From the NCBI GenBank assembly GCA_965178125.1, contig OZ237750.1, positions 1,054,001-1,118,000 of the forward strand: DNA of 64,000 bases. Reading direction: 5' to 3'. The notes under the pieces were generated by a model. It made no database searches and had not been told where the DNA came from. It was given only the letters and a program-made list of their open reading frames with translations. The translations under genes and the position numbers were made by a program. This document shows, in pieces, positions 1 through 64,000 of the stretch. How positions within the stretch are numbered: the stretch's first letter is position 1; each line of letters begins with the position of its first letter. Origin of the DNA: Bilabrum cf. latius. Taxonomy: Eukaryota.

Positions 1-1144
1 GGCCTCTCAGGTGCACTGCGGCCACGGCTCGCGCTGCCTCCAAAATGCTGCCGTCCCAGCTGTGTCGTCGCACCAGCCCACGAGCACTGTGCCTCTGCCT
101 ATCACCTGTGGTCTATCCTCTGCCATGACTATCCACCCCATCTCCACCCTTGCCTCCTACACCCGTGGGGTCCTCGTCCTCGTCCTCGTCCTTGTCATCA
201 CCTGTCTCTTCATCCGATGGATACCCCCTGCCTGGCAAGAACCCAGTGGCCCGAAGCCTGGCTTCTCTCGACAGCATGGGGGTCAGCAATGCAAGCGAGG
301 TGTGCGCGCTCCATGCGCTCCGCACCGAGGATTCCTCCCAGCTCGGGGCCCGCAGCTACCGGGGGGTGTCTGCTGCAGTAGCAGTTGCAGTAGCAGTGGC
401 AGCTGCAGGCCCGGAGATAGAGGCAGTGGCAGTGGCTGGAGTATTGCTGGATGCATGGTCCTGCTTGCTGTCAGATGCACTTGCGCTTGCAATTGCACTC
501 AAGCTGGCCAGCGTGGGGGGGACCCCGAGCTGGGGCGAGCTGCGCGTTCGCACCCCAATTGCCCCAGGGCTGTTTCCGCCGCTGCGGCTGCCTCGGGACC
601 TGGGCGGGGTGCGGGCGGGGCTATGCCCGGTGTTTGCCTGCAATAGCTGCTCTAGTCGAGCAGCGTGCTGCTTTGAGCTCCTTGCGCGGGCTGGTGAACG
701 CCGGACTTCCCAGGCAATGGACCGTCGTTCGCGCGGAGATCGTGATGGCGAACCGGGCTCACTGCCAGCGCGACGACCCGGGGATGATTCTGGTGTCATT
801 TCATGAATTTGAGACGCACTGCCCGCTGCATAGCTGCCACTTTCAGCGCTGTCCACGCGGACCAGTCGTTCCTGAAGAGAGGCGAAGTCTGCACGAGCTG
901 CCTCTAGAGCATCAATGGCTGTGCGGGTCTTCGCAATATCGCTCTCGAACTCGCATAACGTATAAAGCTCTTCAATTGATCTGCGTTGGGAAACTTTTTG
1001 GCTCTTGAGATTCACAGTGCTCCATTGAATGCGCGCACAATTCGAAATCGTAGGGAGCACTCACCTGTCCATATTTCTGAACGTTGACGACCACAGTTTC
1101 CGTCTAAATGTATGAGACCGGTCATCAGAATCATGCTGACTCAT
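1..1144 (-). CDS. SCAPER N-terminal-domain protein (3' end runs out of window); intron 981-1064
   Basis: Spliced RRKLWSSTFRNMDR|SIEELYTLCEFESD...ADFASLQERL and SIAWEVRRSP resemble SCAPER_N. Donor GTGAGT and acceptor CGCAG present. Frame continues through TAG at 356 and 113. Confidence 0.65.
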
Positions 1145-1312
1145 CGAAATGACCACGATACGAGCCGCAGGCGTGGATCCGAGGACAGAGCAAGTCGAAC
1201 GTTCCATCCAAGCGAGTTGCCGTTGCGAGGCACTGCGCAAATGCCAGACCAGAGGACCCAATGCAGGTAGAGGCCTGGTATTTCAAAGATCTTTGCAACC
1301 AATAAAGAAACC

Positions 1313-4300
1313 ATGAGAAGGGAAGCACGTATGTTGGCCACTAGAGGAAGTCCAGCAAACGAAGACTAGTAGTACAGCTCAATCCAACTGCAGCTTGAAC
1401 GGGTGCGTGCGCAATTCAACCTGCCCGAGCAATCCGATTTGTTGCTATTCGGTAGAGCACTGGATGATGCCAGTGATGCTGCCGCGCAAGTTGAAGCGCC
1501 GAAGGCTCGCGTATCGGTGCTTGGCGTGGTGCCGGCCTATGTGGCTCGAAGACGGAAGGAGCTAGCTGCAGGGGCCTCATCGAATGGAAGAGTTGCACGT
1601 GGGAAACGGCTTCAACCAGACAAAGTACCGCATAACCTTCTCACTGATGCTGCGGCCCAGACCATGGTTGGTTTGTCAACTGCACTGAAGCGAGCGAATG
1701 CTGGAACCTCATCTCTTCAAGAGTCTGCCATGCGCCAGGCCGCCTCCAAGCATGGCCATCGCGTTGAAACTCTGCACGAGTCTGCCATCGAAATGGCAGC
1801 TCGACCGGCCTCATCCTTAGCGGCTAGAAGCAGGACTGCCAGAGTCGGGTCGCGAGGCAGAGCTCCCATTGACCCGTCCCCAGCGAGTGCAGTCCTGGCG
1901 TCCATGCATGCGGCCCATCGCATCGGCGTCTGGCAGGCGGAAAGCCCAGCCCCAGGCGGAAGGGTGGCCGGCGCATCGCTCACTGGCAGGCCCGCCACGG
2001 CAGGCACCACCTCCCGTCCGCCATGGAGGCACGGTGGGACCCAGGACCCGCACGCCGCCGCGCGCAGCCGTGCGCTGCACCTAGCCAGACGGGAGGTGGA
2101 GCAGGCGATCAGTGTGCCCGGAGTGGCCTTCGCAGGGGCCCATCGGCTGGAGCTGGCCAGGCGTCTAAGGGAGCGGATGCCCGGCCTGTCCCGGTCTGCG
2201 TCCACTCCATCCATGGAGGCGCGGGGTGGCAGTGGGCAGGGCAGCTGGCAGGAAACGGAGTCGGCTAGCGAGAACATGGACGTTGAAGAGGACGCGGTTG
2301 ATCGGGTGCACCGCCATGCGGTGCAGCTGCGGGACCAGGTCACTGCCGCGAGCGCCCTGGGGTACAGCGAGAGGTTGCGGCGAGAGGCCGCGCGACGCAA
2401 CCGAGAGGCTGCTGCCAGTGTTGGTTAGGCTGCTGCCGGCGTTGGTTCCAGTGCGGGCCAGGGCCACGGCTCTAGGGCAAGATGGCGCCGACTTAGCCAG
2501 CAGCGGGGTGTGCTTGTGTCAAGGGCCGCAGAGGTGGCCGGCAGGTCGGCAGGAGCGGGGGCCGTGGCGGCTGCGGGCGGCTCCAGGGGGATCTTCGCCG
2601 CCACTGGAGAACACGAAGCAAGGAACAGGGTGGTGGCCGTGCTGAGGGGTGTGACGAGTGCATCGGCCGTCGACTCTGGGTCTTCCGGCAGGGCCACTCC
2701 AGGACTGCCGGCCATCGCGGGGGGGCCGGGAGCCGGCAGTGCGAATGGCGGGAGCGTGCTGTTTGGATCGCGCGGCCCTGGCGAGGGGCTGGAGGCTGCC
2801 GTGGATGGGTACGATCCCGCGCTGGATCCAGCCGTGCGAGCAGCAGTGGACCGAGTGGTGGCCCAGGCCCAGGCCCAAGCCCAGGCCCAAGCACTTGCAA
2901 GGACTCGGCCTGCATCGAGCGCGGGGCTCGGGGCTAGGCGATCCCACCACGGGACAGCTGGGTCCAGGGCAAGAACAAGATCGGGGAGGAGGACCTGGGG
3001 TCAAGGTGCTCGCTCCTCCGATGCACCAGCCCGAGGCTATGCTTCGGCTTCGGCGCGCCCGGGCACAGCGCCTGCCTCAGTGGCCTCAGCTCTCGGGTCA
3101 CCATCCTCAACCAGGGCCAAGCCAGAGAGCATCCCCGATGCTGGTGCGAGGGACAGGCGAGGTATTTTTCCGCCGGAACTCATGCGGAGAGAGGACTTCC
3201 GCAAGGCTGTCGTGGAGCCGCGCATCGAGCGGGGCTCTCCCTCGGCCCCCGGATCGCCGGGCGGGTCACCACCATCAACGAGGCCCTCTTCCAAACGCAG
3301 AAGCAAGAAGCAGGCCGCTGAGACGGTGTTCATGCAGGAGCTGCGGGCTGCGTGCGCGCACGAGCCCGAGGACAGGACCCGCAGGGACATGCTGGTAATC
3401 ACCCGCACGCTGCGGCGACTGCCCTTCACGCTCGAGCTGGAGGCGCACTATCTCGAAGACTTGGCTGGCTGCGTGGGGCACAGGGCGGTCAAGCGAGGCG
3501 AGCTCGTCTGCGTGCAGGGAGAGCACGGGGACGCGTTCTATGCAATTCTGAGCGGGCGGCTTGAGGTGGAGGTGCGGGGGATGGGCGTCGTGGGGGCGCT
3601 GGGGGCGGGGCAGACGTTCGGCGAGCTTGCGCTGCTGCAGACGGGGACGAGGAACGCCACGGTCCGGGTGTGCAGCGGGCAAGCAGAGCTCATGGTGATT
3701 CGGCGAGCGGATTTTCAGAGGATCCTGCGGGGCGCCGAGGCCCAGCGCCTCATGCACATCGTGGACTTTCTGTCCAAGCTGCCCCTGCTGCGGGGCTGGC
3801 AGCGGCTCCGGCTGAAGCAGCTTGGCAGCGTGATGACCAGGGAGCTGGTGCGCGAGGGCGGCATCATCGCCAAGCAGGGGCAGCCGCTGAGCCACGTGAC
3901 GGTCCTCGTGGCTGGGAGCGCGCTGCTGCACCACCGAGCCGTGGTGGAGGCCGTGAACAGCTGGCCCGCGCCCACTGCTCGGAGACCAGACGGCCGTATC
4001 GAGAGAGTGGAGGGCAAGCGGCCCCCTGACCTGGCCAAAGTGGCGACCGAGGGCCGATGGAAGCTGAGTGGGCAGCCAGTGGGCAGGGAGCGCATCGGGG
4101 TGACAAAGGGGGGCGAGCTGGCGATGACGAGACGGAGGGCGCGCATGGTGGTGGACGCGCTGGCAGGGCAGCTGCGGTCGGGGGCCGTCTTCGGGCTCAC
4201 TGCGGCCCTGGACCGGCAGCCGTGCCCCTTCACTGTGGTGGCTGCGGAGAGCTCCTGGGTGCTGCGGCTGCACTCGCACTACTTCACGTCCAACGCATTC

Positions 4301-5389
4301 GTGGAGCAGGACGAGGTCTTCGAAAACCTGCTGCGGCGCAGGCGGGCCCGGCTCGAGGCCGCGCAGCTGGACACCATTTCGCTGACGGACCTCGCCGCGC
4401 TCGTCTCGGAGAAGACGGGCCCAGCTCCCGGCGATCTGGCGGGGTCAGGGAGGGGCGCGGCCGGTCAGGGCGATCTGGTGGGGGGAAAGGGAGGGATGGC
4501 AGTGCCATTGCCTGCGGTGGAGGCACTCGGTCGCGAGGGGGCGGGGAACGGGGGGTTGTCCAGTTCCTCCGGGAGGGGCGAGGGACGTGGGAACCAGCAT
4601 CAGCATGAGCACGAGCACGAGCACACGTACGTTGCCCCTGACGCTGTGCCTGACGAGGGCCAGGGGACAGCGCACAGCGTGCTGGTGTTCCCCTCGGTGA
4701 GCCAGATCGGGGGCAAGCTGGGGGCGGCAGGAGCCTCTGCCGTGGGGCAGGTGGGGGCGGGGAGCGCACAGCGCGCGCAGCGAGAGGCAATCCTGACCCA
4801 ACGGCGCGCCTCCCTTGTGGCCATGGCCCCTTTAACGTCGCAAGAGGGCAGCCACCTGCTGCGCAAGGTGATGCACTTCTTGCTGGACGAGGCCGCCAGG
4901 CAGAGGCAGAGGCAGAGGGCGAGAGAGAAGGCGGGCCTCATGGGGGCAGCGGCTCCCGAGTTCGCGGCATCGGGTGCGGATGGTGCTCCAGATGAGCGGG
5001 GCGGAAGGGCGGGGATTGTTAGGCTCGGAGCAGCAGTGGCGGAGGACAGGGACAGGGGCGGTGAGATGGAGAGGGAGAGGGAGAGGGGGACCGAGCCCGA
5101 GGGTGAGGGCGAGTCGTGGGGTACTGTTGACGGTGCGGAGGCCAGCCGCAGCAGCAGGAAGAGTGCAGCAGCCCGGCGCACCACTCGGCGAGAGCAGCAG
5201 TCGATCCGCAGGGCAGAGGCCTAGGAGGAGGTCGAACGGACGCTGAGGAGGCGGGAGCAGGTGCAGGCAGTGGGGCCGAGTCGCAGGGCCCGTGAGCTGC
5301 CGGGGGTATCCAGAGGGGACCTGGATGGATTTGGCGGGATGCTGTCGGTGCAAGCATCGGTGGAGCTCGGGGAAGAAGATGGCTGCTGA
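1313..5389 (+). CDS. Cyclic nucleotide-binding domain protein (~1350 aa, single exon)
   Basis: ORFs 1403-2428 and 2510-5224 share a frame and are separated only by TAG; first TGA is 5387-5389. cNMP motif QGEHGDAFYAILSG...FGELALL...RNATV plus a second degenerate cNMP domain. Start is 1313 or 1331. Confidence 0.8.
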
Positions 5390-7443: not shown

Positions 7444-8531
7444 TCAGGGCGGAGCCGCCAGGTGCAGAGCCGCCGCATCCTCGGCCCCCTGGCCCCTGCC
7501 CCCGCCACTTTTGTCCACGTAGAAAGAGGGAAGCCTCTCCCCGAAGAACACCTTGGAGGTGTTCCCCATGGCCTCGATGTGCCGCAGCTGCAGATACTCC
7601 GGGGTGAGCAGGTCCTGGTTGGCCTTGGCCAGCAGCTCGAGGCGGTACGATTCTGACTCGGCCTGCGCGCGAGCACGGGCCACCAATATGGCGTCGTCGA
7701 TCCGAGACACGTTCTGCAGGGCTTCTCGCTCCATGATGCGCCTGCGGTTCTAGATGGCACTGATGTCGGTCTCCTTCTGCGCGTGGATTTGCGAGATCTT
7801 CCGCTCCGTCTCAGCTTCCAGCTCCTGCACCTTGGCTCTCTGCTGAGCGACCAGGACCTCTGCCTTCTGCACCTCCATGTTAAGGAAGTTCTGCTCAATC
7901 TACCGAGGAAGCCTGGGCTTGGTGACTCTGACAGCAATGATGTTGAGCCCTTTCGTGAAACGGTTGGCTTCGTGCTGCAGACGGTCGCGCAGCAGCTCAT
8001 CCAGCTCATCGAATTTTTCGATTAGCACCTATCTCAGCGTAGCTTTGCTACAATGCTGGTTGATTTCACTGTGCAGCCTCTGGAAAACCAGGGCCTGATC
8101 GTAGTCGATTCCAAACTCGCGAACGACGTCAAGCACAGCTGTCTCATTCAGCTGATTGACAACCTCTACGCGATCAAAAGAGATCAGAACACCACCTGAG
8201 GTGCCACATGCGATTTGGTTCACTTCTGCGAGAGATCAGGGAGTACAGGATGTGCAATAACACCAACGAAGTTCGTGGGCAGCCGATCTTTTCCATTCCC
8301 GGCCTCTCGCCAGTATTGCTCACCATCAACCTGCTGCGTGACCTAAATCTATTCAAACCTATCAACGAGAGGAATGGCAAGGTGCAGGCCTGGTCTGTAA
8401 ATCGCATCAGAGAGCTTTCCGAGCCTGAACACGATCCCAACGTGGCCTTCCTAAACTACATTGAAGCCAAACGAAGCTATCAATGCACCAATAGCAGCAA
8501 ACACAAATGAAACAATTAGGACTTGCGACAT
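7444..8531 (-). CDS. ERLIN: Erlin (SPFH/Band 7 family); intron 8226-8323
   Basis: N-terminal TM helix, EGHVGIVFR, CGTSGGVLISFDRVEVVNQL, HSEINQHCS, IIAVRVTKP, LLTPEYLQL. Needs about 6 TAG read as sense; TGA stop. Confidence 0.88.
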
Positions 8532-8679
8532 TTGTGAGCTCCTGTAGATCACAAATACGGATCCGGTCCAGAAAAACACCGTTTCAGATTATTGAGAACC
8601 GGAACCTGCCAGTGGGAACTTCGAAGTTGCAAATCATGGTGCCTCTTCTCCAGTTCATTTACAATATATTCCCGCAATG

Positions 8680-11600
8680 TTATGCGTCGCTTCCCCCATC
8701 TGCCCCGCTGCCAGCCCCCGCGTCCCCTGCTTCCCCACGGAGCATGGCCATTTCCTGGTTGTGCAGAGTGAGCTCCTCGTTCGTCTCGCGGAGCTGCGCC
8801 TCGAGACCGGCCATGGTCAGGGACCCTCCGCCCGCCGTCACCTTGGCACCCACCCCGCGAGGACGCCTGCCGCCATTCACTGCAGCTGCTGCTTCCTCCT
8901 CGCTCGGCAGCAGTCCACCGCTCCCTCGGCGCGACCCGCTGGCACCTCCCACGACGCCCCGCCCCGCCGCGGGCAGGGTTCCCGTCGATGCCGCCACGCG
9001 CGTGGCAGACCCCCGCATGGGGGACCGCAGCAGCCCCAACGAGTCGGAACGGCGCCCCCCGCGCATGCCCACCCTGCTGCCCCTGCCCCCGAGGCTACCG
9101 TTTCCATTCTCGCCCACGCTCAGCTGGCTCACCCCGCCCAACCGGCGGCTGCCCCCCATCCCGCTGCTGGACGGGCCTCCCCGCAGGGTGGCCACGGACC
9201 GCTGTCCGGGCCCTCCCCCCCCACTGCTCCCGAGCCCCTTGCCCTTGCCCGCGTGCCGCGCCCGGACCCCCCTTGCCAGCGCCGCCAGCGAGTCGGTGGA
9301 TCCCTCCCCCTGCCCCAGAACCTCGCTCTCGTTGGCGCCAACCATGGACCCGCCCATAAGGCCCGTTCCCATCTCAAGCTCAACGGACATGCTTCCCAGG
9401 GCGGAGGGAGACCCCAGACCCCCGAGACCAGCCATGGACGGCCGGTCCACCCCAACCCCACTCGACAACATCCCGCCCCCGCTGCCGTCAAACTCCGACG
9501 CCTTGCCCTCCCCCGCACCCTCTGCATCAGACACCATGGAAGGGGCAGGGCCAAGACCAAGCGGGGAATGGCTCCTCGGCGGCCGCCCCGATCCGCTCCC
9601 GCTCCCGCCCTCCGCCCTCGTCCCAGCTCCAGCTCCAGCTCGTGCCTTCATCCTGCCTCCCCGCGGCTGCCTCCCGCCGATACCCCCCTTCTGCTTGGCC
9701 AGGAAGACCTGCTCCTCCAGCCGCCGCTTGTCCTGGTGCAACGTGGCCACCTCGCGCCGCAGTTTGTTGCACTCGGACAGCAGCCGAGAGTTGTCCACCA
9801 TCGCCGACCTGCTCTTGCGCTCCGCCTCGAAGCTCGTCTGAGAGGCCTGTCGCGCGAGGGCGCGGGCTCCCCTCTGCATGTAGTCCCGCTGCCGCCGCAG
9901 CTCGCCAATGGTCTCCTACGCGTGCAGCTGCTCGATGCGGTTCTGGTTCAGCAAGTGGTCGATGCGAGCCTGCTACGAGTCACCCTCCTGCCCCTCCCCC
10001 GCGATTGCGCTAGCTCCCACCCCCGACGCCTTGCCTTCCGACCCTGCTTTCTTGCTTGCAACTCCCGAGCCCGAGCCCGCGCCAGCCGCATCGCTGCCGC
10101 CGCGGGTCTTGCTGCGCGACTTGCTGGGCTTTGCGGGCTTGACGTGCCGCCGCTGAATGCGCTCTTCCTTCACGTGCTTGCTGTGGAGGTCTCGCAGTGC
10201 CCCAAAGGCATCACCATCCTGCCCGGAGAGCATGCCGATCTCGATATCTCGCAGCACGGCACGCAGCTTGGCCTCTAGCGCGTGCTACTGCTTCCTTAGT
10301 CGGGCCACCTCCGCCTTCATCCCATTCTGGCTCATCTCACTCTTCCTTTCCGTGGCTTGCATGCCCTTCATCTTCGCATCCGTTGTGGTAAGCTCGCTAT
10401 TCGTGTCGTTCAGCAATTTCTGCAGCTCCTTGACCCTCAAGGCCAACGGCTCCCTCTCCATCTTCATGTCCTCTATGTTGTGCTCCAGAATGCTGCGATG
10501 GTGCTGCAGCGTCTGGTTGTCGCTTCGGAGGGCCGCACTCTCTCGTTTCAGCTGCATGACGGTCTCCTCAGCGGCCCGCCTCTGGCGATCCTTGGAGTCG
10601 GACTGCTCCTTGGACTGCCGCAACTGCTCTTGCAGGATGATTATCTCCTAATTCGCCTCCTCTGCTAGTTCCCCCGCGCGATCTAGCCGCCTCCTGCTCT
10701 CATCCAGCTGCTTCCGGAGAGACACCACCTCCCCGGCCCGCTCCGCCGTCCGCTTCTGCTCCTCGATGAGGTCTCTCTGTCCGAAAAACCGCTCCTTGCG
10801 CAGGGCCTCTTCAGCCTCCTCTTCGGTCTGCGAGAGCTTGGTCTCGAAATCTGACTTCTCAGTGACCAGCTTCTGCCGGTGCTCGTCGATTTCGGCCCGG
10901 AGCTTGCGCTCCACCTCGTTGCGCTACTCCTCCAGCGCGTCCTCCTTCTCTGCCCTCTCCCTCGCCATGCGCTGCATCTCCTGCTCCGCCTGCTGCTTGG
11001 TGGCCGTCAGCTGCTCGTCCAGACGGTCGAAGCGGTCGATTTCCATGGCAAGCTGGTGCTCGTACTCGTTCTGCTTGACCCGCACTTGCCTCTCGTGGTG
11101 CGCCTTGAGGTCCGCGATGATTCCCTCGTCCCGCTTGGCCTGTTCCATGCTCTCCCGCTGCAGACGGGCGTACTCGTCCTTGAGCCGTCTCTGCTCCGCC
11201 CTCGAGTCGTCCAGCAGCTGCTGCCTCTCGTCCGCCCACTCGCGCTCCCTGAGCTTCAGCACGTCCTCCGCCGCGGCCCTGCTCTGCGAGAGCTCCTCCT
11301 CCAGCGTGTGCACCCTCTCGAACATCTCCCGAATCGCGTCTCGCTCCACGAGCCCCACGCGGTTGTTGAAGGCGCGCGCCGTGGGGGCCTCCCAAGAGTA
11401 CTGCACCATGGCCTGCGAGGCGGCGGCGGAGGCAGAGGCAGAGCCCGAGGCAGGCGAGGCGGAGGGGCTGCTAGAAGGGCTCGACCCGTCGCCTGCACCT
11501 CCGCTGGGCACGGCCGGTGGCAGCGAGCGCGGCACCCCCGCCCCCTGCCCCGGCACCCTGGTTGCTGCTCTGAGCTGCACGTTCCCCCGCACACGCTCCT

Positions 11601-14600
11601 CCTTGGCCTGCGGGATGGCCACCAGGAATACAGACCCGTCCAGCCCCGCGCTGAAGAGCAACTTGCGGTCCACAGACAGCCGGAGCGAAGACACGGGGCC
11701 GGCGTGCAGCTGCAGCTCGGTGCAAGGCGGTGCATCCCTGGCCTGCGCGTCCAGGGCCTCGTACGACCCAGCCGTCGCGGGCTTGGAGCGGTCCGAGCGC
11801 GATGACACGCGGAAGGCAGCGCTCGAGGTGTCAGGTCCCAAGCCCCTAGGACGACTGCCACCGCTCCGGCCGTCCCGCTCGCCCGTGGGTCCGCCACCAC
11901 CCGTCCCCCCTGCGGCCCCCTCGCCGCCGTATGCCTCGTCGTCGCCCGCGTCCACGGCGGGGAAGGGCCACGGGTAGGCGCGCACGCTTCCCCCTGCCGT
12001 GCCCGCAAAGAGCGCCCTGTCGTGGGGACCCCTCTCGAGGGCGGTGAGGCGCGCCCCCGTGCGGTAGACCTGGGCGTCCCCGTCCTTGGAGACCTGCAGC
12101 AGAGGCAGGCCCGGCTCGTGGCTGTGCCGCTGGGCCCTCAGCGCGAGGGTGGCGAGAGAGGGCTTCTTGCCGCTGTGCGCGCCCGGGTGCGCTGCACCTG
12201 AGTCCCGCTTGGACTTCTTCTTCTTGCTTTGCTTCAACACGGGAGCAGCTGTGCCGCAACCAGCGGCCACGATGGCCCTCCCGTGCCCCTGGCCCAGCAC
12301 GACGGCACTGTCGAAGTGCACCCCCTTGGTCACGTTGGTCATCCGGTCCACGCGTCGCCCCGTGGACGGGTCCCACGCAACCACAGCCCCGTCCTCCCCG
12401 ACACTCGCCAGCAGCGTGTCATCATCTGCCCACGCCAGCGCCTGCACCACGCCGACGTGCCCCGAGAGCTGGTACCGCTGCTTCATGTCGTACGACGAGA
12501 TCAGCTGCACCGTCAGCCCGCTGCACGCTGCCAGCAGCGCCCCGCCCGGCGAGAACTGCACCTGGCCAACGTGCCGCACGCTCGTGTGCTCGCGCCAGGG
12601 CCGCAGGGTCTTTGTGGTGGCGCACACGTTGAAGATGCGCAGGCGGTCCGGCAGCGCGGCAACGACGAGGTAGCATGTGGGGTGCATGGACACGTCCACC
12701 GCGGGGCTGTCGAGCTCCTGCTCCACCTCGCATACGCCTTCGAGGTAGTCGTACAGCCGCAGCGTGGAGTCCTGCCCGCTCGAGGCCACCAACGGGGCGA
12801 ACATGCCGCAGTCCAGAGAGGTCACTGCCCCCGTGTGCGCGCCCTTCTCGATCATGGCCCTTGAGGGGTCCTCCCGCTCATCCAGGCTCTCGGCCAGCCC
12901 CAAAGCAACCGACCGGAGGCCCATGCGGCCGGACCCGATTACCACCAGGCCGTCCCCCGGGCTCGTGCTCACCGACCGGATCGTCAGCCTGTCTTCCAGG
13001 TCGGCGGCAACGGCCGCGGCGGCCCCTGCGCCGGCAGGCCCCTGGCCCGAGGCCGACGAGATGGACGCGCTCCTGGTGCCCCCGATGCTCTGCGTGAAGG
13101 ACGTGCCCGTGCCTCGGTCCAGGCCGCTGAGGCTGGCCCGGGCCCCTGGGCGACTCCCTGCCTGCTCTCTCAGGTCATCCAAGACGTCCTGGTGGCCCGG
13201 CAAGAAGGCGCGCAGCAGCTAGTACCCCATGGGCTCGTCTGCCTCCCGCCCGCCTGCCCCTCCATGTAGCCCGGGCATGCCCATCCCGCTCATCGAGCCC
13301 CGCTTTCGCCTGTCCCCGCCCGCCCCCAAGCTCGGGTGTCCCCCGTGCGGCCTGCGCATCTCCTCCTCGTCAAGGTCAGACTCATCGTCGTCCTCGTCCG
13401 AGTCATCATCCGTCGCCCTGCACCGCTCGTAGATGCCCAGGTACCCGTGAGTCCCCGCCAGCACGAAGCCGCGGCCCCAGGCCTCCACGCAGGTCAGCTC
13501 AACGATCCCGCGGGCCTGCATCTCAGGCCCCAGTGCGCTGGGTGCGGCTCCCCCGCGAGCCAGGCCCGCCCTCTGCACCGCAGACTGCAGCTCGGGGAAT
13601 TCTGCCCAGAAGGTTTCCTTCACCTCGAAGCGGACCATGCGCCCGTCGCTGTCCCCGTGCCCCGGCCCACCGCGCGTCACCTTGGCCCCCACGGCGCCCT
13701 GGGCCGCTTCTTCCTCCGCGGACCGGCGAGGGGCCAGGACCGTCACCACTCCCCTGCGGCTGGCAGCCACCAGCACGGGAGGCTCCAGCTCCGGCTGCCA
13801 GGAGGCCCCCCCCGCGCCTTCCCCCCCAGCACCCGCCTCATCGTCGGGCCGCGGGGTCACCACCCAGGCGTGGTCCACAAACTCCTCCTCCTCTCGCCGA
13901 GAGACCTGCAGCACGGGGCCTTCCCGCAGCGTCCTGTCCTCCCCCAGCCGCCACTGCCGCAGGTGACCAGTGCCCGAGGTCGTCACGCACAGGCGCTTCG
14001 CCAGCTCCATGGTGCCCGGCGAGTGTCCCCCAGCCGAGTGATTGCCACCCTTGCCGTCGCCCGAGCCAGCCTTGGCACCGCTGGTCGCCGCACCCTGCCT
14101 CCTACCCTGCCCCCCCTCCCCCTCGTGCCCACGGGCCTGCTGGTCGTGCTCAGCGTCCTGGTCCTGGTCCTGGTCCTGTTCCGGCCGCGCTCCCCGGTAG
14201 TAGCCCTCGAACGGCTGCACGCGCAGCTGGGTGATGGACTGCCGCGGCATGCCTACCCCGAGCAACTTCCCGGTGGCCCACTGCCACACCGCCACCACCC
14301 TGTCGGCCCGTGCCATCTTCACCTGATCCTCGGAGGCTCCGGCAGCCTCGGCGGCTGCCCCAGGCTCCATCTCGTCCACCCCCACTGCATCATGACTCCT
14401 GACACCATGGTTTCCCTTCTCCTGCCGATGCCCGCCCTCTCTCAACCTGCCCCCGCCTCGCCTAGGCCTCGCCCCGCCCTCCTTGCCGCCCTCCTTGACC
14501 CCGTCTTTGTCTTTCCCCCTGTCCTTGCCTTTGCCCCGCCCACGACTGCGGAGCTTCTCCTCCGCCGCAGCCGCTGCTGCCTCCTCTCTCTGGGCCTCCT

Positions 14601-48128: not shown

Positions 48129-48276
48129 TTGAGCCGGTACAGCTTCAGTGGGTACGCCGCATCGCACACGAAATCCATCCGTTGTCTGTCGCATTATTCC
48201 GGTTTGAAAGACTCGTCACACAAGAATGAATCAGCTGCAGATTTGCCGACATTGATTAGTACCTTGTCCCGTTCGC

Positions 48277-52087: not shown

Positions 52088-55000
52088 TCAATGGCCAGCA
52101 GCGTACTAGTCTGTTTCCAGAGAATAAGATTAGTAATAGTAGACACGCTTTTATCACTTACGTTTCAATGTCCCAGCCGGCACTACATGAGGCTTCGGCC
52201 AAGACCAAACCTACGACTTGCCCGCGCCTGCTTGGCTAGAGGACTTTCCTTCCGGAGACTATTCCGGCGACGCCTCGGGGTGCATCACTGCGTCCGCCTC
52301 TCGCAAAGCAGCCTTCATGGCCTTGTCCAGCTCGCCTTCCACGTCGTGTCGCGCTTCTGTGGCGGACCTCTCCAGCAACGCGTTCCCTGATGGTTGCAGA
52401 ACCACATCTGGCTTGCCGGTTCCCCCAGGGTTGGAGACAGAGATCGTGACCCCGCCCTTACCCGCGCTTATCCTAACCAAATCGTGGGCCTCGCTGGTAC
52501 CCGCTTCACCCTCCGCAGCGACGGCGATGGGTGATGCCGGCACGGACCCCCCCAAAGTTACTGCCCCCTCCTCCTCAACCTTCCCATTGGAAATGTAGGG
52601 AGCCTATGTGGTGCCCCCCTCGGCAGAGCTCAGCACAGGAGCCACGTCCGCCTCGATCTGCTCCCCAGCATCCCCAGAGCCAATCTCTGCCTCCGTTTGC
52701 TCACCTGCTGCACCATCGGGTGAAAAAGCATCCGCCTCCTCCTCCTCCTCCCCAGCTGCAGCCGATTCGGATTGCCCTGAAGAAGCACTGCTGCCTTCAT
52801 CCTCCCCAGCCTGCTATGCATCTGCCTCTTCGTCGCCTCCGTCCTCAGGTGCGCCGCTAGAATTTTCTACCTTCATCTCACCGTCCCTCTTCTGCTCCTC
52901 GCCCTCGCCCTCGGCTGCTACATCGCTGGAACCGGCCAGCTCAGCACCAGCCTGTCCATCCGCGCCTGCCGCACTCCCTGCCTCGCCCTCTGCGTGCTCC
53001 AGGGCACTCAGGATGGCCTGCGTGGCAGCCTCGGCCACTCGGCCCGCTGACCCTGGCACTGGCCCTGACTGGCCAGCACTGGCTGCAAGTGGTCCGAGGG
53101 GGGCAGCTACACCCTAAGCTGCATTCAGACAGTCGCAAGCATCCGCCTGCAGCGACGAAGCCTACCCGCAGTCGCACACTGGACGTTGCGAGGGGCATGC
53201 ATCGCCGCAAGACGCAGGATCCGTCCCCCCGCAGGCTGCAGAATCATCCCCAACCCCGCCCCCGATTCCCCCTTCCTAGGGACAGGACCGCCTCACCGAC
53301 ACGAACCGCTCAGTCTCGCCCTCAGGCTGACCCTGACCCTCGCCTCCCACAGCGCCCCCCGCGGCATGTGCCTCCTTCGTGGCAGCCTCCACCGACTCAG
53401 TCCCGTTCTGCCGTACCGCCCCTGCCAGGTCCTCCACAGCAGCCCTTCCGTACTACGCCCCCAGCTTGACTGCCAGCGCAAGGGCCTCCTTGCCTTCCCC
53501 GTGGGCTTCCATCGCCTCGCGCGCGGCGCGCACCGCCTCGGCCGCCCCCAGCAGAGCCCCGTCCCGCGCTCCGTGGGACAAGGAGGCCATGCCCATCACG
53601 CGAGCCCCCACGCGGGCGCCCGCGTGCGTGGCAGCGGCAAGAATATCCTCCGGGATGCCCTCCACGTTGATCTTGCTGGCGATCTGCTTCACCAAATTAC
53701 TGCGTTCACCCTCGCCAGACGTCTGCTCCAAGATCTCCAGCGCCTTGCGGACACGCTCGTGTCTGCGGAGCGTCTCCTCGTTCGGATACAGCTGCTGGTC
53801 CACGTCGGGGTGGTCGCCCTTGCCAAGGATGTCCCGGGCCTTGTCCAAAGCCTGCTAGGTGCGGTTCTGGCTGGCCAGTGCTGCGCGGTACACACCGCTG
53901 ATCCGCTCCCTGCGCTCCCCCTCCGACTCTGTGGGGGCGTTGGCACCCACGGGCTCGCTCGCCTTGTCGGCCACCTGCTGCACCTCCTCGGCGAGACTGT
54001 CGCCTGCGCTCTCCAGCTCACTCGCGACATCAGCCGACGGGCCGTTGTTCTTCTCCTCGCCGACATCTCCCGCCAGCAGCTGGGCGGCCGCGAGCGCGTT
54101 GTGTCGGCGGGCGCGCCTCGCCCCGGCCCTAGACCGCAGCACCCTGACAGAGGCCTGTTGCTAAAGCAGCATTGCCCCTGTAGGCGGGGGCAGCTGCTCG
54201 GCATCTCCAGTGGAAGCGGAGGGCTCTTCGCTGGAGCTCGTCGATGCAGGTGTCGCGGTGCTGTTGCTGGCTGACTCAGTCGTATCGCCCTCGCTTTCTT
54301 CTTGGCCCTCGCCCTCGCCCGCGCTCTTGCCCAAGTTGTCAGCCACCTCTGTGGCGTGGTGCAGCCGCTCGAGTGCCTCTGCAATGGCGTCCTCCTCCTT
54401 GCTCTTCGTGCCCCCTGCAGCGAACGGGCTCTCCTTCAGCCCGGCCTGCTCTTCTGCCTTCTGGTTCGCATAGTCACCTGCGCTCTGGCCGGGGGCTCGC
54501 TTGACCGGCTGCTTGATCACAGTGCCTGCGGGTGACTGCTCATCCTTTCCAACGGAGAACACACCGGACAAATCATGAGATGCCTCGTCGGCAGGAGTAG
54601 TCGGCTTATAGGGGCCATCCTCGGCTTTATTCTCCTCCTCACCGGCACCCTCGGCACCATCGGCCTTGTTCTCCTCCTCACCGGCACCCTCGGCATCCTC
54701 GGCCTTGTTCTCCTCCTCACCGGCACCCTCGGCCTTGTTCTCCTCCTCACCGGCACCCTCGGCACCCTCGGCCTTGTTCTCCTCCTCACCGGCACCCTCG
54801 GCATCCTCGGCCTTGTTCTCCTCCTCACCGGCACCCTCGGCACCCTCGGCCTTGTTCTCCTCCTCACCGGCACCCTCGGCACCCTCGGCCTTGTTCTCCT
54901 CCTCACCGGCACCCTCGGCCTTGTTCTCCTCCTCACCGGCACCCTCAGCCTTGTTCTCCTCCTCACCGGCACCCTCGGCACCCTCGGCCTTGTTCTCCTC

Positions 55001-58000
55001 CTCACCGGCACCCTCGGCATCCTCGGCCTTGTTCTCCTCCTCACCGGCACCCTCGGCCTTGTTCTCCTCCTCACCGGCACCCTCGGCACCCTCGGCCTTG
55101 TTCTCCTCCTCACCGGCACCCTCGGCATCCTCGGCCTTGTTCTCTTCCTCACCGGCACCCTCGGCCTTGTTCTCCTCCTCACCGGCACCCTCGGCACCCT
55201 CGGCCTTGTTCTCCTCCTCACCGGCACCCTCGGCACCCTCGGCCTTGTTCTCCTCCTCACCGGCACCCTCGGCCTTGTTCTCCTCCTCACCGGCACCCTC
55301 GGCACCCTCGGCCTTGTTCTCCTCCTCACCGGCACCCTCGGCACCCTCGGCCTTGTTCTCCTCCTCGCCAGCACCAGCACCAGCATCTTCCTCCTTCGGC
55401 AAGCTGTTCTCAGGGTCCGCCCCAGAAGCGCTCTGCAGCCAAGTCCTCGCCGACCGGAACCTCTGCATCAGGGAAGGCTGAGACTACCCCGGGCCCGTCT
55501 GCTCGTCCTGCGCCTTCATGAGCGCCAGCTGGCTGGAAATACCGGCCATCGCGCCCTCATCACCGGATGCCACCTTCGTAGCGGCAGCTGCTGCGTCTTG
55601 CGCCGCGCTCTTGGAGGCATCCACGGCGGCGCGGAGAGCGTCCAGCTCCGACCCCGGCCCCGCCAACTCGTCCAGCACGCTCCCAGCAGCAGCTTCGTCT
55701 TCTGCATCGTCCTCTCCCACAGGGACAGGGGTAGACCCGTCGATGGCAGCCACTGCTCGGGTGAGCTTCCGGCTGACGCGGGCCATGAAGTGCACGTAGT
55801 GTGCCTCAGCGGTGGCGAGGTCGTGGAGAGCTCGAGCGGCGCGGCTCTGTGCGATGGCGCTGTGAAGGGCAGCCTCCACCTCGTGCGCGGGGGCATGCTG
55901 CTTCTCGGCCCTCGTGGCGTCCTGTACCGCCTTGCCCGCCAGGCGCATCTGGGCGGCCAGCTCGCGGGCTGACCGAGCCGACCTGCGTCGAGCCTCCGCC
56001 AGTCGCTGCTCCGCCACGGCCTATGCCACATCCGCTTCGTGTCGGGCGTCCGTCTTGACGCCCTCCAGGTGCCGGCCAGCCATGCGTGCCTGCCGGTCCG
56101 CCTCCACCGCAGCCTCCTCTAGCTTAGCCGCCTTGCGCTTGAGCGCAGCCGCTTCCTGGCTCCGCTGCTGGGAGGTCTAAAGTTGACGGATCACGTCTTC
56201 GGAGGCGGCGTCCCAATCAGTGCTGTCAGCTCCTGCATCGGCGGCCAACACATTGGCAGTGGCAGGGGCAGAGGCATCCAGGTCGCCAAAGGCCTCCTCC
56301 GGCGTGGGCGCAGCGGCTGCAGGTTCCTGGCCGGTCGCATCACCGACTGCGACCCCACCTTCCTCTTGATCGGCGACGGGCTCCTCTAGCCCACCCCTGA
56401 GCTGCGCGAGAATGGAACCTTCCGTATCCACCCCATCAGGCGTGTATGGCTCTTCATCGCCTGCAGATGGCAACACGTCCAGCTCCCCTCCTGCCACCGC
56501 GTGCGACTTCACTCCTAGCGCCTCCGACGCGCCATCCACAGCTGAATCAGCAGCTGTTCTCAGGTGGCTCTGCACCTGCGCGCTGGCTCCCTCCGCTGAT
56601 GACACAGCAACGTGTGCATCCCGAAGCGCCTTGAGCAGGTCGGCCTTGGCGGCGTCTGCAGCTGCCCTTGTGCTTGCTGCGGTCTTGAGCTTGGCCTCGA
56701 GGTCGGCCTGCGCGCTGGCCACGCTGCGCCTCCAATTTCCTATGGTGCGGTCGATCTGCTCCCCAATTCGCTTCTCCGCCTGCTGCTCGGCGGCCTTGTA
56801 GGCCTCAGGAGCCGCCGAGGGGGCGGGGGTGGGCGACGAGCTGCCTGCCTGCTGCGAATCTTCGCCGGCAGGAGCTGCCTCCTAGCTGGCGCCTTCCACC
56901 GTCAGATTGGTAGATGCCGCGTCAGCCTCAGCCTCAGAGGCCTGACCTCCTCCTCCCGCTGAGGCTGGTGTTGAATCTTCCTGCTGCCCTTGTCCCTGCC
57001 CCTCTGCGCCACCGGGCTCTGGTGACTTGCCACCGATTACAGAGGGCTCTTTGCCATCAGAGGGCTCTTTGATTTGAGATGCCTGGCTGATGGGAGGAGA
57101 GCTACCATCGGCACCAGCACCAGCACCAGCACCAGCACCGGCACCGGCACCGGCATCGGCACCAGGTGCACCGTCCATTCCCGAGGCGTGCTCTTCTTGC
57201 TCCGGGTCCTACTGGGCCCCGATGCCTTTCTCTTGCGATTCGGTCTCTTGCACGCCGCCCTGTTCAGATGCTGCCGAGGCAACCGCTTGCTATGGATCGC
57301 CTTCCCCTTCCTCTGCTTCGCCGCCTGCCTCCTCGGCATCGGGAGTCGCATTTTCCTCTGCCTGAAGGGCGCCTGCTGCCCGCAGGGCGTCTTCCTTCTG
57401 CCGCGCTGCAGCACTGGCTGCATCTTCTGCCTCCTTCCGTTTAGACAGGGCTTCCTTCTGGGCCTCCTGGGCCACTCGCATGGCCTCCTTGGCCTCTGCC
57501 ATCTGGGCATCAGCCTCTGATAGGACTGAGTTGGCCTCAGATTCACGCTCCTCCGCAGCCTCTGCAGCTGCTAGTGCCTGCTGCTAGACTTGCTACTCGT
57601 GCTCCTGCTACTCTGCTCTGGACTACGCATCTTCCATCTCGGCCTGTCGTTGATCGACTGCATCGCGCTGCTACTACTCGTTCCTATTGGGGAGCTCCGT
57701 CGCAGACTGTTCGTCAGCACCAGTCTAAGCATCTCCATTGTCAGTTTCTTGCTCATTATCGGCGCTGCTGTCAGTATCCTCTTCATCTCGTCGTCGGGTA
57801 CCAACGGAGCTTTCTGCGACAGCAACAGCATAGCGAGAGATCATCGAAGTCAACAACAACATCAGCACCGATCGAAACAAACGAGATCTGCGAAATTTTT
57901 CTCACTAATAAAGCTGAGCTCTTCAGATGCCACTGTTAAGAGCTGCATCGCAGAAGGCATTGGGAGGCCTGCGAATGAATTGGATTGAATATCTAGAAAG

Positions 58001-60070: not shown

Positions 60071-60795
60071 TTATTGGCGCCCGGATCCGCTGCCACTGCC
60101 TTCGCCAGGCTACTCCGGCCCCAGCACGCCCTTCTTCAAGATGATATTTCCGTACAGTGCCGACTCGCCGGTCGCTACGACGCAGTACGCCTGTTTCGCT
60201 CGCTCGTAGAAAGCAAATCGTTCCACCTGATCGAACGGGACGGCCCGGCCCTCAGCTTCGTCGACAATACTTCGGTAGTCCGCCCAAATAGGAGTTTGCA
60301 TGCCCTAGTCAACGTGCATCTACATCATCTGCATCAGAGTGCACGGTGTGCTCGAATCGTCGAGCGGCATTAGCTCAAGGATACCTCGAAGGATCTTCGG
60401 GATGCCGTGTCCGTCGGCTCTGATCACGCCACCAGGCGTGCAAGCACCGACCGACTCGCTCGGAAAGTTGGCATCCGCCAACACAATTTCATCTCCTGCG
60501 GCACGTCGAGTGTAATAATTCCACCCACTGGCACTGATATGCACAGACTGCAGCGGCACGGAATCCATCCGGGCATCCCAAATGTGGCAAGCCCACCATG
60601 GACAACACATGATAGAGTGATATGATTCTCGTTTACAGTCGTGGGTACAGTACATTCCTAGTTTTCTTTGGATGCCGAGTCGGTAATACCGACTCGGTAC
60701 TGAAACACAAGCGCGATCTTACCGTGTCCAGCTCTTGCAAGCATGTATAGAAGCCGGGGAGAGAGAACACGAGGAATACGTTTAAGAATCGTCAT
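60071..60795 (-). CDS. FUOM: Fucose mutarotase (RbsD/FucU family); intron 60496-60722
   Basis: [33 protein letters not shown]...[33 protein letters not shown]; 3 TAGs; TAA stop. Confidence 0.92.
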
Positions 60796-61054
60796 CGGGA
60801 TAAACTAATCAGAGGCCAAAATGAAATCTTGCAATAGTATCCGCTGTTTTACAAGAGCCCTGGATAATCCGGAACCGAACCACGGCACAACGAACCAACA
60901 TCGGAGTGTGGCCCACCCTCAGCCGCTTCCCGGATAGGTTGAGATTGTACTCGCAGTCGACTGAATACTATTAGGTGTCCTTCAATACTGTGCCCAGTTT
61001 GGATTGGTAACTTTATCTCAGTAGTAGTTGGCTGGGTATCTGGACAGCGATACA

Positions 61055-62896
61055 ATGAGCGAGCTAGCAGACGACCCTCGGATTGGTATTGCCAAGGAAG
61101 CCATATCCAAACTTCGAAGTGCCATCTAGAGGCAGCGGGATAGGGCTCAGCGATTTCAGGTGAACTACTCGCCACCTGACGTATTGAAGGTTTTATCGAA
61201 AACGGAGCTATCTTGCGTCTTGCGCCACGCAAGCGACATTCCGGATGATGTTGCAGAGCTGCTGCAGTCGATGCAGCGGCGGATTGCGGGCGCAGGGAAG
61301 CCTGGCAGGCAAGGTGCCGCGGCAAGCGGTGAAGCGTTGGCTCTCGGATTTGACCCCAATTCAGAAGAGCAGATCAGGCGCCGCAAGGCTAGAGAGGCAA
61401 GATTTGCCGCGAGCGCCCCTTCCAAATAGTTAGGAGTGGATGCTGGAGATGCGGGCGCATTGATGAGGGCGCTTGATAGCTCGGTCACCGGCACGGCGGG
61501 TGCCTCGCACACGACAAGCGCAGACGACCTGGTAGAGCGCGCCGAGCGTGCTGCACAGGCATTGCTTCGCGCACCCGGTGAAGGAGCTGGCAGGGCGCGA
61601 CGAGAGCGAATGCTCTCTGCCCTAGACACGCCCCTGGGTGCGTCCACTGGCAGCAGCAGCGGGTCGTCCTCGAGTGCGGCCACAATCTCTGCCAGTACCT
61701 CCAGCTCCAGCTCTGGCAGCAGTGCCGCGGCAGGTGCAGGGGCAGAGGATGGCACTGACCCTAAGGAGTCGAAGCCTGCGGCGGGCGAGAACGAAGCCGC
61801 ATCTGAATCTGCACCGTCTTTGTCCTCGTCGCCGTCTTCGCCTCACGGAGTTGCCAGTGGTGTTGAGGTTGTGGAGGGCGACGCTGCCGTAGTGTCGGTG
61901 TCGGCGGGTGCACCCGCAGCTGCAGAGGGCTCGGCGAGCGACAAGCCGAAGCCTGAAGCCGCCAGCGATGCTCTGCAGAAAGCACGCGCAGAAGGGTGGC
62001 GGCCGGGCCTCGACTCGGCGGGCATACGCATGAGCGAGGAGGAGCGCAAGGCCCGGGGGATGGCTCTGCTTGGGGGCGGTGCTCCTTTGCGAGACGGGCT
62101 GCTGCTGATGGCGGGGGCCTACCTCTCGGCTGGCACGGGGGATATCCACCGGTTCCTGGGCAAGCACCACGTGAAGCCGGGGGGAATCGAGTGGCTCAAC
62201 GGGGAAAGCGTGGTGTGCTGGTTCCCGGACGAGGGCGCGGCGGGCCGGGCCATGGCATCTCTCAGCCAGCCCGTGCCCGTGGTGGACGGCGTGTCGCGGG
62301 TGCCCCCGGTGTGGAGGGAGGCGGTGCGTCCGCTAGTCAAGGGAAAGACGGACCGCTATGCGACCAAAGGCAAGCGCACCTTCGTGTGGATGCGACCCGC
62401 CACGGAGCACGACTCGGCAGACCGGACCGTGAGGACAAGGGGGGCTGGCTCGCACGGCACCCGCGCTGCGAGAGGGAGGGGGAGGGGGAAGGAGGCAGCC
62501 GGGAGAGGTGGCAGTCGGCGGGAGCGTGGTCGAGATGCAGCGGGCAGGTAGGGGTGGGTGAACGGCCGCAGTGAGGTCCGCCAAACGGCTGGCTCAAGGT
62601 CTGGCCCTGGCTCTGGCCCTGGTAGGGGCAGCGGTGGGCTGTCGCTATCGGAGCGGCTCATGCTGGGGCTCGAGGCATCCAGGCCAGGGACCGCAGGCGG
62701 GGCTTCCTCCGAGAAAAGCAGCTCCAGGAAAAGGAAAAGGGGCAGGGGGTTTGATTCGGGCGATACAGGGGGCAGCGCAGCCCCGGGCCCGCCTGGCGGC
62801 TCCAAGGCGGCCTCCTCGCAGGGCGCCGGCGGTCGCGAGGAGCCTTCAAGAAGATCGGACGAGCCGAGCGCCGCCAAGAAGGTTCGAACGGATTGA
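61055..62896 (+). CDS. NCBP3-like (nuclear cap-binding subunit 3 / DUF2414) protein
   Basis: TGDIHRFL...IEWLNGESVVCWFPDEGAAGRAMASL...W...KRTFVWMRPAT..D; RRKAREARF. Joined across 3 TAGs; TGA stop. Confidence 0.65.
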
Positions 62897-63111: not shown

Positions 63112-63570
63112 TCACTGCAGCAATGGCAAAAGGGCGAGTCGCTCACGTGGGGCTACTGAAGCAGGCAAGGATAGTGGCCAAGGCAACATGCGGTGCATGG
63201 TCTCACAACGGTACGACAGTTCTCGACGGGATACCATGTTAACTTCATCCGCTGAAAAGGGATTGTACTCGAAATAGGAGTACGAATGTTCTCCAGGGTG
63301 CCACGAAGTGTCCCTGCGTACAAGTTCAAAGTTCACTCGCGTGACAGCCATCTCTGCCACCTTGCAGGCGACTGCGACCCTCAAGGCTGGCCAGACCCGA
63401 ACTCGGTGCTTCATGAACACCCCCAAACCAATCGCAAAACCAGCTACGGATCCAATCAAATGCCTGTGCGTTACGATGCGCCATTTCCGGGAGTCTGCCT
63501 CGCTCGCATCGATAAGCTCGTCTCTGCGCGCATCGTGGAGCACCCTTTGTAACGTTACCTCGTCTGCCAT
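63112..63570 (-). CDS. Hypothetical small membrane protein (exon structure uncertain)
   Basis: ATG-initiated ORF with hydrophobic LIGSVAGFAIGLGVF; possible GTACGC donor near 63321. Confidence 0.4.
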   Translation of the reverse strand: MADEVTLQRVLHDARRDELIDASEADSRKWRIVTHRHLIGSVAGFAIGLGVFMKHRVRVWPALRVAVACKVAEMAVTRVNFELVRRDTSWHPGEHSYSYFEYNPFSADEVNMVSRRELSYRCETMHRMLPWPLSLPASVAPRERLALLPLLQ

Positions 63571-63729
63571 GGCAGAATTAGTTTACGTTCATTCTGCGGC
63601 CAATTTTGTTCGTTCACCTTTTGCTTGGGCCCACTGTGAGGGGATTGGGGTAGCTGTCATCACACGCCATTTTCAGTGGATCACAAGCCTTCTTTCTATT
63701 TGCTGCCCCAGGAAGCCCCAAAGCGACTC

Positions 63730-64000
63730 ATGGCATATCCGAACCAAGTGAGTCTATGAGAATGCCACCTGCGACCGGATCCGGATGATCTAGTCACCCA
63801 AGCGTTTGGTCACCAGAGTTCTTTGATGAGTGCATTCGCAGCAATTTCGGGGCCGGCCGCCGCACCAGTAGTTCCACGGGGTTCCAACTAATGGACAATA
63901 CCCCGGCTACGCTACTGGACCAGGGGGGATGCCTGTAAATCAGGGCCAGTGGCAGCCAAACCCAACGGGCGCAGCATACCCTCCCTAGGCTGGAGCTTTC
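63730..64000 (+). CDS. 5' end of a Pro/Gln/Gly/Tyr-rich protein; intron 63748-63841
   Basis: MAYPNQ|QFRGRPPHQ*FHGVPTNGQYPGY...AAYPP*AGAF; GTGAGT donor and CGCAG acceptor in phase. Confidence 0.6.

Follow-up and report, generated by a model that had tools for sequence, protein, structure and literature searches.

Nuclear genetic codes in which UAA and UAG change meaning do so nearly always with both codons together; the few cases in which UAG changes alone test the constraints that tRNA wobble and eRF1 place on code evolution. As listed in parts of PMC11687900, UAG alone has become a glutamine (Gln) codon in the nuclei of Iotanema spirale, Hartmannula sinica, Trochilia petrani and Protocruzia tuzeti, and sections of that paper and of PMC5304391 describe UAG-only reassignment to Leu in a rhizarian (exLh) and in uncultured (TARA) phyllopharyngean metagenome-assembled genomes, and to Ser in Scotinosphaera. 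Both UAA and UAG (UAR) are read as Gln under NCBI table 6, for which passages of PMC11687900 name many ciliates, Hexamita, Ulvophyceae, Streblomastix and Amoeboaphelidium protococcarum. Here, we analyzed 64,000 nucleotides of contig OZ237750.1 (assembly GCA_965178125.1, entered as Bilabrum cf. latius; positions 1,054,001 to 1,118,000), a stretch that we call the window and number from its first letter. An earlier note, made from its letters, had proposed that UAG is read as Gln in this DNA while UAA and UGA remain stops. Three independent kinds of evidence agree on that proposal: conserved Gln columns in distant homologs, Gln residues and CAG codons in close relatives, and unedited UAG codons in spliced transcripts. 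Thus, the window very probably comes from the nucleus of an aerobic eukaryote, rich in GC and poor in introns, in which UAG encodes Gln and UAA and UGA are the sole terminators (NCBI table 15). We hold this reading of the code with high confidence; it is a rare known code type, here in a further organism.

Translation of the window with TAG as a sense codon, together with Pfam searches, revealed closely spaced eukaryotic genes along both strands, in DNA of 55-67% G+C, with few and short introns (~90-320 nt, GT..AG). Opening TAG lengthened the longest open reading frame (ORF) of the six frames from 931 codons under the standard code to 3940, followed by frames of 2188, 1915, 1704 and 1433 codons, and the codons held in frames of at least 300 rose from 15,771 to 32,146. 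Opening TAA instead of TAG left frame lengths almost unchanged. With TGA opened instead, the longest frame was 1548 codons, yet the summed length of long frames reached 44,609 codons compared to 32,146 for TAG, a measure to be read with caution because TGA, the commonest stop triplet, gains more than TAG. The long TAG-open frames are spanned by Pfam domains and by protein fragments from relatives.

Codons were tallied in 12 coding regions (15,158 codons), each picked for its length or for a Pfam match. These regions hold 92 TAG, 0 TAA and 0 TGA in frame, beside 503 CAG and 130 CAA, and 11 of the 12 contain at least one TAG, which bears out the statements of the earlier note that in-frame TAG breaks most genes and that in-frame TAA is missing although CAA is common. 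Over all six frames of the window (~128,000 positions) there are 860 TAG, 367 TAA and 1563 TGA triplets, corresponding to ~6.7, ~2.9 and ~12.2 per 1000 codon positions. The in-frame rates are 6.1, 0 and 0 per 1000, so that TAG is about as common in frame as over all frames, and at the all-frame rates ~43 TAA and ~185 TGA would be expected in 15,158 codons. A 3,940-codon frame without TAA and TGA cannot have arisen by chance at the six-frame rates. UAG is an ordinary sense codon here, with a share of about 13% of the Gln codons (12.7% in the tally). Also claimed was a TAG in a Gln-rich tract at 63869; the triplet (63869-63871) does lie in an open frame, rich in P, G, Q and Y, that leaves the window, but the frame found no support as coding sequence.

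The principal TAG-bearing genes, beside which the window has several unnamed ones, are as follows (E, expectation value):

1088..5389, plus strand: cyclic-nucleotide-binding protein gene (Pfam cNMP_binding, E 6.2e-24); 5 in-frame TAG; stop TGA.
7444..8588, minus strand: erlin (SPFH) gene in two exon-bearing frames, 8223-8588 and 7444-8235; 6 in-frame TAG, including 8343-8345.
8680..15246, minus strand: gene for a WD40 and coiled-coil protein (Pfam WD40, E 2.4e-17); 8 in-frame TAG; stop TAA at 8680-8682.
15836..16267, plus strand: ISCA-type Fe-S assembly gene (Pfam Fe-S_biosyn, E 6.6e-10); 3 in-frame TAG, including 15992-15994; stop TGA.
18047..19906, plus strand: AFG1-like ATPase gene (Pfam AFG1_ATPase, E 2.6e-58); 4 in-frame TAG, including 18227-18229; stop TGA.
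20031..25145, minus strand: hybrid histidine kinase with receiver domain (Pfam HATPase_c, Response_reg); 12 in-frame TAG; stop TGA.
25796..26401, minus strand: mitochondrial-type ribosomal protein uS17 gene (Pfam Ribosomal_S17, E 2.5e-25; PDB uS17, E 4e-18); TAGs 3' of the S17 domain.
33351..45076, minus strand: very long protein-kinase gene, ~3,900 codons (Pfam Pkinase, E 1.8e-47); 26 in-frame TAG; stop TGA.
45573..48215, minus strand: gene for an LRR and coiled-coil protein (Pfam LRR_6); 4 in-frame TAG; stop TAA at 45573-45575.
48539..48910, plus strand: last exon of a HIG1 gene (Pfam HIG_1_N, E 1.2e-12); 3 TAG, one inside the HIG1 domain.
49448..49544, plus strand: exon 2, J-domain, of an HscB gene; TAG at 49497-49499 and 49503-49505; flanked by introns 49359-49447 and ~49545-49630.
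50768..51982, plus strand: sterol C-24 methyltransferase (SMT) gene (Pfam Sterol_MT_C, Methyltransf_11); 1 TAG at 51473-51475; stop TGA.
52154..57813, minus strand: gene for an acidic low-complexity protein with a 39/108-nt tandem repeat; 23 in-frame TAG; stop TGA.
60071..60493, minus strand: last exon of a small gene; 3 in-frame TAG; stop TAA at 60071-60073; intron 60495-60721 spliced in RNA contigs of runs X5 and X6. We take the product to be RbsD/FucU-like from its translation, no search having been made.
60965..62896, plus strand: 643-codon gene with no Pfam family; 5 in-frame TAG; stop TGA.

To compare the TAG sites with distant homologs, TAG was translated as X, so that the alignments carried no pull towards Gln. 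The clearest column is that of the TAG at amino acid 61 of the AFG1-like ATPase (18227-18229, in DKS[TAG]), where, among 120 homologs, 13 have a gap and 106 of the 107 aligned have Q, the other having D. The TAG at amino acid 67 of the same protein falls in a column of R (74) and K (11) among the 120; its two other TAGs lie in unalignable N-terminal sequence, and no AFG1 homolog was found in the PDB. In the ISCA-type protein, the TAG at 15992-15994 stands in GGCSGF[TAG]Y and is matched by Q in both of the 2 PDB chains aligned there, and the column of the next TAG has G and A. Human erlin-1 and erlin-2 matched the erlin gene with E 4.6e-68 (frame 7444-8235) and 4.5e-5 (frame 8223-8588); opposite its six TAGs they have E, S and Q in frame 8223-8588 and E, A and R in frame 7444-8235. 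The TAG at 8343-8345 on the minus strand is in I[TAG]VTQQVD, and the VQTT position is Q in both human proteins. The two HscB codons of exon 2, at 49497-49499 and 49503-49505 in YR[TAG]R[TAG]KMVHPD, precede the HPD motif; against PDB 4it5 and 3bvo, the first is matched by A and Q and the second by Q in both, with weak E values (0.02 and 0.044) owing to the exon's 32 residues. Pfam HSCB_C was found in the following exon. The earlier note had placed all four sets of sites correctly.

The TAG inside the HIG1 domain aligns with a Q of HIGD2A (1 of 1 chain aligned; E 0.022), the TAG at the edge of the uS17 domain with E, V, A and A in PDB chains, and the protein-kinase TAG with a variable position. 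In the histidine kinase, the HisKA region had no match in the PDB. The SMT column (120 homologs) is E in 88, D in 7, S in 6, N in 4, T in 4, Y in 3, Q in 2 and R in 2. In total, Gln is conserved in 5 of 16 aligned TAG columns, and one more is Q/A. Distant homologs taken alone favor Gln, since every invariant column is Gln, with Glu less likely.

Close relatives gave a sharper answer. We tallied 11 public protein fragments that are 79-98% identical to window proteins (3,837 aligned pairs). These fragments were evidently called with TAG as a stop, so every residue that they show stands for an ordinary sense codon. At 10 informative TAG sites, the relatives have Q at 7, and S, E and K at one each. 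The Q residues lie opposite TAGs at amino acids 809, 1008, 1215, 1249, 1610 and 2044 of the protein kinase and at amino acid 236 of SMT (98% identical relative P0006); the pair at kinase 1008 was read by hand from the last residue of its fragment, BLAST having trimmed it. Specifically, fragments P0246-P0249 cover amino acids 427-3545 of the kinase and show Q at 6 of the 7 TAGs spanned. The earlier note had asked whether the TAG columns might match another residue. Likelihoods were calculated from how each ordinary amino acid is substituted within the same close-relative alignments, and Gln fits best: the log-likelihood of the TAG sites is -14.1 for Gln, -42.4 for Glu and -43.4 for Lys, and lower for the others (Leu -62.6, Ser -74.0). 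Ordinary Gln codons are conserved in these alignments at 0.86 (n = 138), so 7 Q at 10 TAG sites is within range. More distant relatives of the histidine kinase (P0287, P0288, P0360 and P0378; 42-62% identical), were excluded from the tally; opposite its TAGs, which fall there in a poorly conserved linker, they have A, G, R, I, D, E, A, R and D.

The ends of the relatives' fragments are informative as well. Eight end inside window proteins, and the next codon in the window is CAG in 5 of these cases, TAG in 2 and TAC in 1. The two ending at TAG are histidine kinase fragments P0284 and P0285, which stop exactly at TAGs 1467 and 759; judged from these ends, both are sites shared with relatives. 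Each of the fragments P0246-P0249, P0284-P0286 and P0010 runs from the first Met that follows one TAG up to the TAG after it, and standard-code annotation has evidently truncated the relatives' public proteomes. Metagenome contigs L001/L002 carry an SMT gene whose protein is 81% identical to that of the window. This gene has TAG at two sites where the window has CAG, and its frame runs through conserved sequence to a TGA. Thus, TAG has the same use in a second, distinct organism, with TAG and CAG interchanging by single transitions, and the code change predates the split of the two.

An alternative is that UAG is ambiguous, read as Gln inside genes and as a terminator near some 3' ends. Such ambiguous stop/sense codes occur in Condylostoma and karyorelict ciliates. 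Within the window, only the end of the HIG1 frame (48899-48910), which reads ...AGA TAG TGA, offers a TAG that could be a real stop; a set of ~20 genes whose frames are delimited by TAA and TGA leaves room for genes ending in TAG. On the other side, TAG is needed as a stop in none of the 12 coding regions. The histidine kinase has a TAG 4 codons before its TGA, and relative P0286 has K at this position followed by the same 4-residue tail; the sense residue and kept tail indicate that this terminal TAG is read through. Ambiguity is the best surviving alternative to UAG as a plain Gln codon, and we regard it as very unlikely.

A slimmer chance still attaches to UAG as a sense codon for another amino acid, of which Glu is the likeliest; UAR is read as Glu in some ciliates and in Blastocrithidia. 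Three distant columns fit Glu, namely that of SMT (E in 88 of 120) and the EEGH and TLQE positions of erlin, and the DNA of the 81% identical relative has GAG at the site of the SMT TAG. These observations are outweighed by the invariant Gln columns of AFG1 (106 of 107), ISCA, erlin and HscB, and by the close relatives, whose residues at the 10 sites are Q in seven cases and E in one and give Glu the far lower likelihood. In addition, the relative's own TAGs stand opposite CAG in both of the 2 direct cases and never opposite GAG.

The 12 regions end in TGA (9) or TAA (3), one further gene (60071) ends in TAA, and the TAA stops that the earlier note had placed at 8680, 45573 and 60071 are all present. 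TGA is absent in frame though it is the commonest stop triplet of the window (1563 over six frames), and the SMT gene of L001/L002 also stops at TGA. UAA and UGA are terminators, not sense codons. That both UAG and UAA encode Gln (table 6), with UAA merely rare through GC richness, is a fainter prospect than a Glu codon. A high G+C content at third codon positions (GC3, 0.6-0.88) would indeed lower TAA. Yet if TAA stood to TAG as CAA to CAG (130:503), ~24 in-frame TAA would be expected beside the 92 TAG, and the tally, which addressed the frequency of in-frame TAA raised in the earlier note, has 0 in the 12 regions. Four genes stop at TAA, and reading through three of these stops adds only short extensions of lower GC3: 31 codons in the WD40 gene (GC3 0.61 vs. 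0.83 in the gene), 65 in the LRR gene (0.55 vs. 0.79) and 9 in the third (0.44 vs. 0.80), with further TAA within two of the three. Adding TAA to TAG as sense changes the five longest frames only from 2188 to 2234 codons.

The TAG codons were next followed into sequencing runs. Contigs of runs X1, X5, X6 and X7 were compared over 44001-64000 only; X1 is a DNA run, probably the source run, and X5-X7 come from two other studies. The X5-X7 contigs are joined over 10 GT..AG or CT..AC introns, joints that X1 lacks, and their depth differs >100-fold between genes; on both grounds we take X5-X7 as transcripts. These spliced contigs keep the T of 30 of the 35 TAGs in five genes of this interval, and no T>C change occurs among the listed pieces. 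They cover 23 of the 23 TAGs of the acidic protein gene, which has the deepest RNA contigs of 44001-64000, the single SMT TAG (X6, X7) and 4 of the 5 in the 643-codon gene (X5, X7), all unchanged. The listed RNA pieces miss all 4 TAGs in the LRR gene and the final one in the 643-codon gene. The X1 contigs have 0 differing letters among the listed pieces. The sole differing letters listed in these 20 kb, found at 59361 and in a high-copy element at 58410-58460, leave every TAG untouched.

The introns leave the TAGs in place as well, since the 10 that were seen contain none of those counted. The introns flanking HscB exon 2 are spliced at GT..AG joints in X5, X6 and X7, as is HIG1 intron 48373-48538 in the same three runs. 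RNA contigs also splice intron 45077-45177 at the 5' end of the kinase gene and introns 57814-57905 and 57968-58072 at that of the acidic protein gene. As these introns precede the likely start codons of both genes, the longest two on the minus strand, the long frames begin with untranslated leader. Four long skips (2,545-8,782 bases, with sides of 21-23 letters) were taken as repeat artifacts and not used. The retention of T in spliced contigs speaks against editing, splicing-out and assembly error, the three explanations against which the earlier note had wanted its proposal checked; each was looked for, and the outcomes favor the proposal. Nontranslation of the TAGs as such, whether through RNA editing to CAG, splicing-out, assembly or sequencing errors, or pseudogene lesions, is the least probable of the alternatives and can practically be dismissed: no positive support for it was found, although 5 of 35 TAGs lie outside the listed RNA pieces and contigs can hide minor variants, and against it T is kept at the other 30 in spliced contigs from two other studies, the X1 DNA contigs show no other letters, the introns are free of counted TAGs, TAG alone and never TAA or TGA interrupts frames, and the relative carries TAGs of its own at other Gln sites.

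Several observations weigh against UAG as Gln with UAA and UGA as stops. The coding frames were delimited by TAA and TGA, which makes the zero count of these two triplets partly circular; the Pfam domains and relatives' fragments across the frames show that they are real genes despite this. Among the 16 distant-homolog columns, 3 are Glu (erlin twice and SMT) and 7 are variable, and the HscB and HIG1 alignments have weak E values (0.02-0.044). Close relatives show S at kinase 1951, E at the SMT site (81% identical relative) and K at histidine kinase 1700, and one fragment ends opposite TAC, which is not a Gln codon. The RNA label of X5-X7 is a guess (X5 is marked "probably DNA"), their status as transcripts being drawn from the spliced joints. 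Two of the 30 covered TAGs (52211 and 52259) share a piece in which one letter differs at an unlocated position, and contigs drop rare variants, so that partial editing may be hidden.

A mechanism can be proposed for UAG read as Gln with UAA retained as a stop. According to sections of PMC5304391, only the anticodon CUA reads UAG without also reading UAA. A tRNA-Gln with anticodon CUA would decode UAG but not UAA, and its simplest source would be a second copy of a tRNA-Gln(CUG) gene, altered once in the anticodon. Changes in the N-domain of eRF1 would have weakened recognition of UAG while keeping that of UAA and UGA. The same mechanism is argued for Iotanema spirale in those sections, with tRNA-Gln(CUA) derived from tRNA-Gln(CUG) and a T32G change in the GTS motif of eRF1 (PMC5304391). 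ARAGORN found 0 tRNA genes in the 64-kb window and 0 in L001/L002, no Rfam family scored at its gathering threshold in the window, and the eRF1 gene is not among the genes of the window.

Two neighboring genes are bacterial-looking and glycoside-hydrolase-like:

27719-29350, plus strand: right-handed beta-helix protein gene (Pfam Beta_helix).
30104-32533, minus strand: BNR/sortilin-like protein gene of 809 codons, whose nearest protein-atlas clusters are all bacterial.

Their GC3 values, 0.80 and 0.83, are the highest among the long genes, and together they have 1 TAG in 1,352 codons, compared to ~6 per 1000 elsewhere. They are possibly acquired genes, to judge by these features.

Three repetitive segments were also recorded:

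54619-55375, minus strand: tandem repeat of ~7 copies of 108 nt (93% matches), which gives the acidic protein its EENKAEGAEGAG repeat and at which the short-read contigs of all four runs break.
59079-59610: tandem repeat of a 30-nt unit, 17.7 copies (94% matches). Its minus strand reads as HHGRRTSQAA repeats; a nearby spliced joint, 58848/58937 (GT..AG), points to a plus-strand gene.
58300-58490: element with ~70-fold depth over its surroundings in DNA run X1 (bin 1031 vs. ~13), in contigs of 59-80 letters at a depth of ~920. It adjoins short direct repeats, aaatacag...attgttgggtaaagattcc, and is a high-copy dispersed repeat.

Among the lineages with the same reassignment, Iotanema spirale (Fornicata) has the same codon table, with UAG as Gln and UAA and UGA as stops, and is described in the relevant parts of PMC5304391 as an anaerobic fornicate known from its transcriptome; the window, by contrast, has 55-67% GC and genes for mitochondrial uS17, HIG1, AFG1, ISCA and HscB. 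Such a gene set indicates an organism with a translating, respiring mitochondrion. Fornicates are not known to have mitochondria that translate and respire, and these genes, as far as they can be read from the window, argue against a fornicate. In the ciliates Hartmannula, Trochilia and Protocruzia, UAG alone has likewise become Gln; passages of PMC11687900 give UAG an 18.5-31.8% share of their Gln codons, compared to 12.7% in the window, and place it in 78-84% of their genes, compared to 11 of 12 window regions. Their main stop is UAA (91.9% in H. sinica; same passages of PMC11687900), whereas TGA ends 9 of the 12 regions here. As for named homologs, diatoms make up 7 of the 11 organism-named AFG1 matches (among 120 matches listed; 32-46% identity), and the named best matches of SMT are plants or diatoms; no ciliate is among the named best matches of AFG1 or SMT. 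A FastTree phylogeny of AFG1 (121 sequences, 474 columns) places the window gene in a clade of 8-9 environmental sequences, not with the diatoms. Phyllopharyngean macronuclei have gene-sized, AT-rich chromosomes, unlike the 64-kb, multi-gene, GC-rich contig of the window. GC content, contig structure and named matches would thus argue against a ciliate, and as far as the window shows the organism appears to lie outside the published UAG=Gln lineages. No published report of UAG as Gln that fits such an organism was found in the main texts of open-access papers and bioRxiv; since the data date from 2025, one may be in print or forthcoming.

We tentatively suggest, with somewhat less than even confidence, that the window represents an independent, unpublished origin of the code with UAG as Gln and UAA as stop, in a protist clade that is neither ciliate nor fornicate, GC-rich, aerobic, and free-living or associated with algae, with at least two members, the window organism and the 81% identical metagenome relative with its own TAG codons. 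If so, no earlier lineage of this kind would have allowed the tRNA(CUA), the changes in eRF1 and the sequence of events to be worked out directly, as the existing genome and transcriptome data would here, and the code change would have been accompanied by pressure towards GC instead of AT. One more case, in an aerobic, GC-rich eukaryote whose DNA and RNA data are public, would add an independent data point and a tractable system for finding the suppressor tRNA and the change in eRF1. There is a practical consequence too: standard-code annotation of this genome or its relatives truncates most proteins, and the public fragments break exactly at TAG codons.

Beyond these lineages, the exact codon table of the window, with TAG as Gln and TAA and TGA as stops, is NCBI table 15, listed for Blepharisma nuclei and some phages. 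The reassignment is shared by crAss-like phages (PMC9523058), whereas the window belongs to a eukaryotic nuclear genome with spliceosomal introns. The codes with UAR as Gln are alike in turning a stop into Gln through a near-cognate of the Gln codons, but UAA is a sense codon there and a terminator in the window. The UAG-only Leu and Ser codes are alike in decoupling UAG from UAA, but Leu and Ser fit the TAGs of the window far worse than Gln does (-62.6 and -74.0 vs. -14.1).

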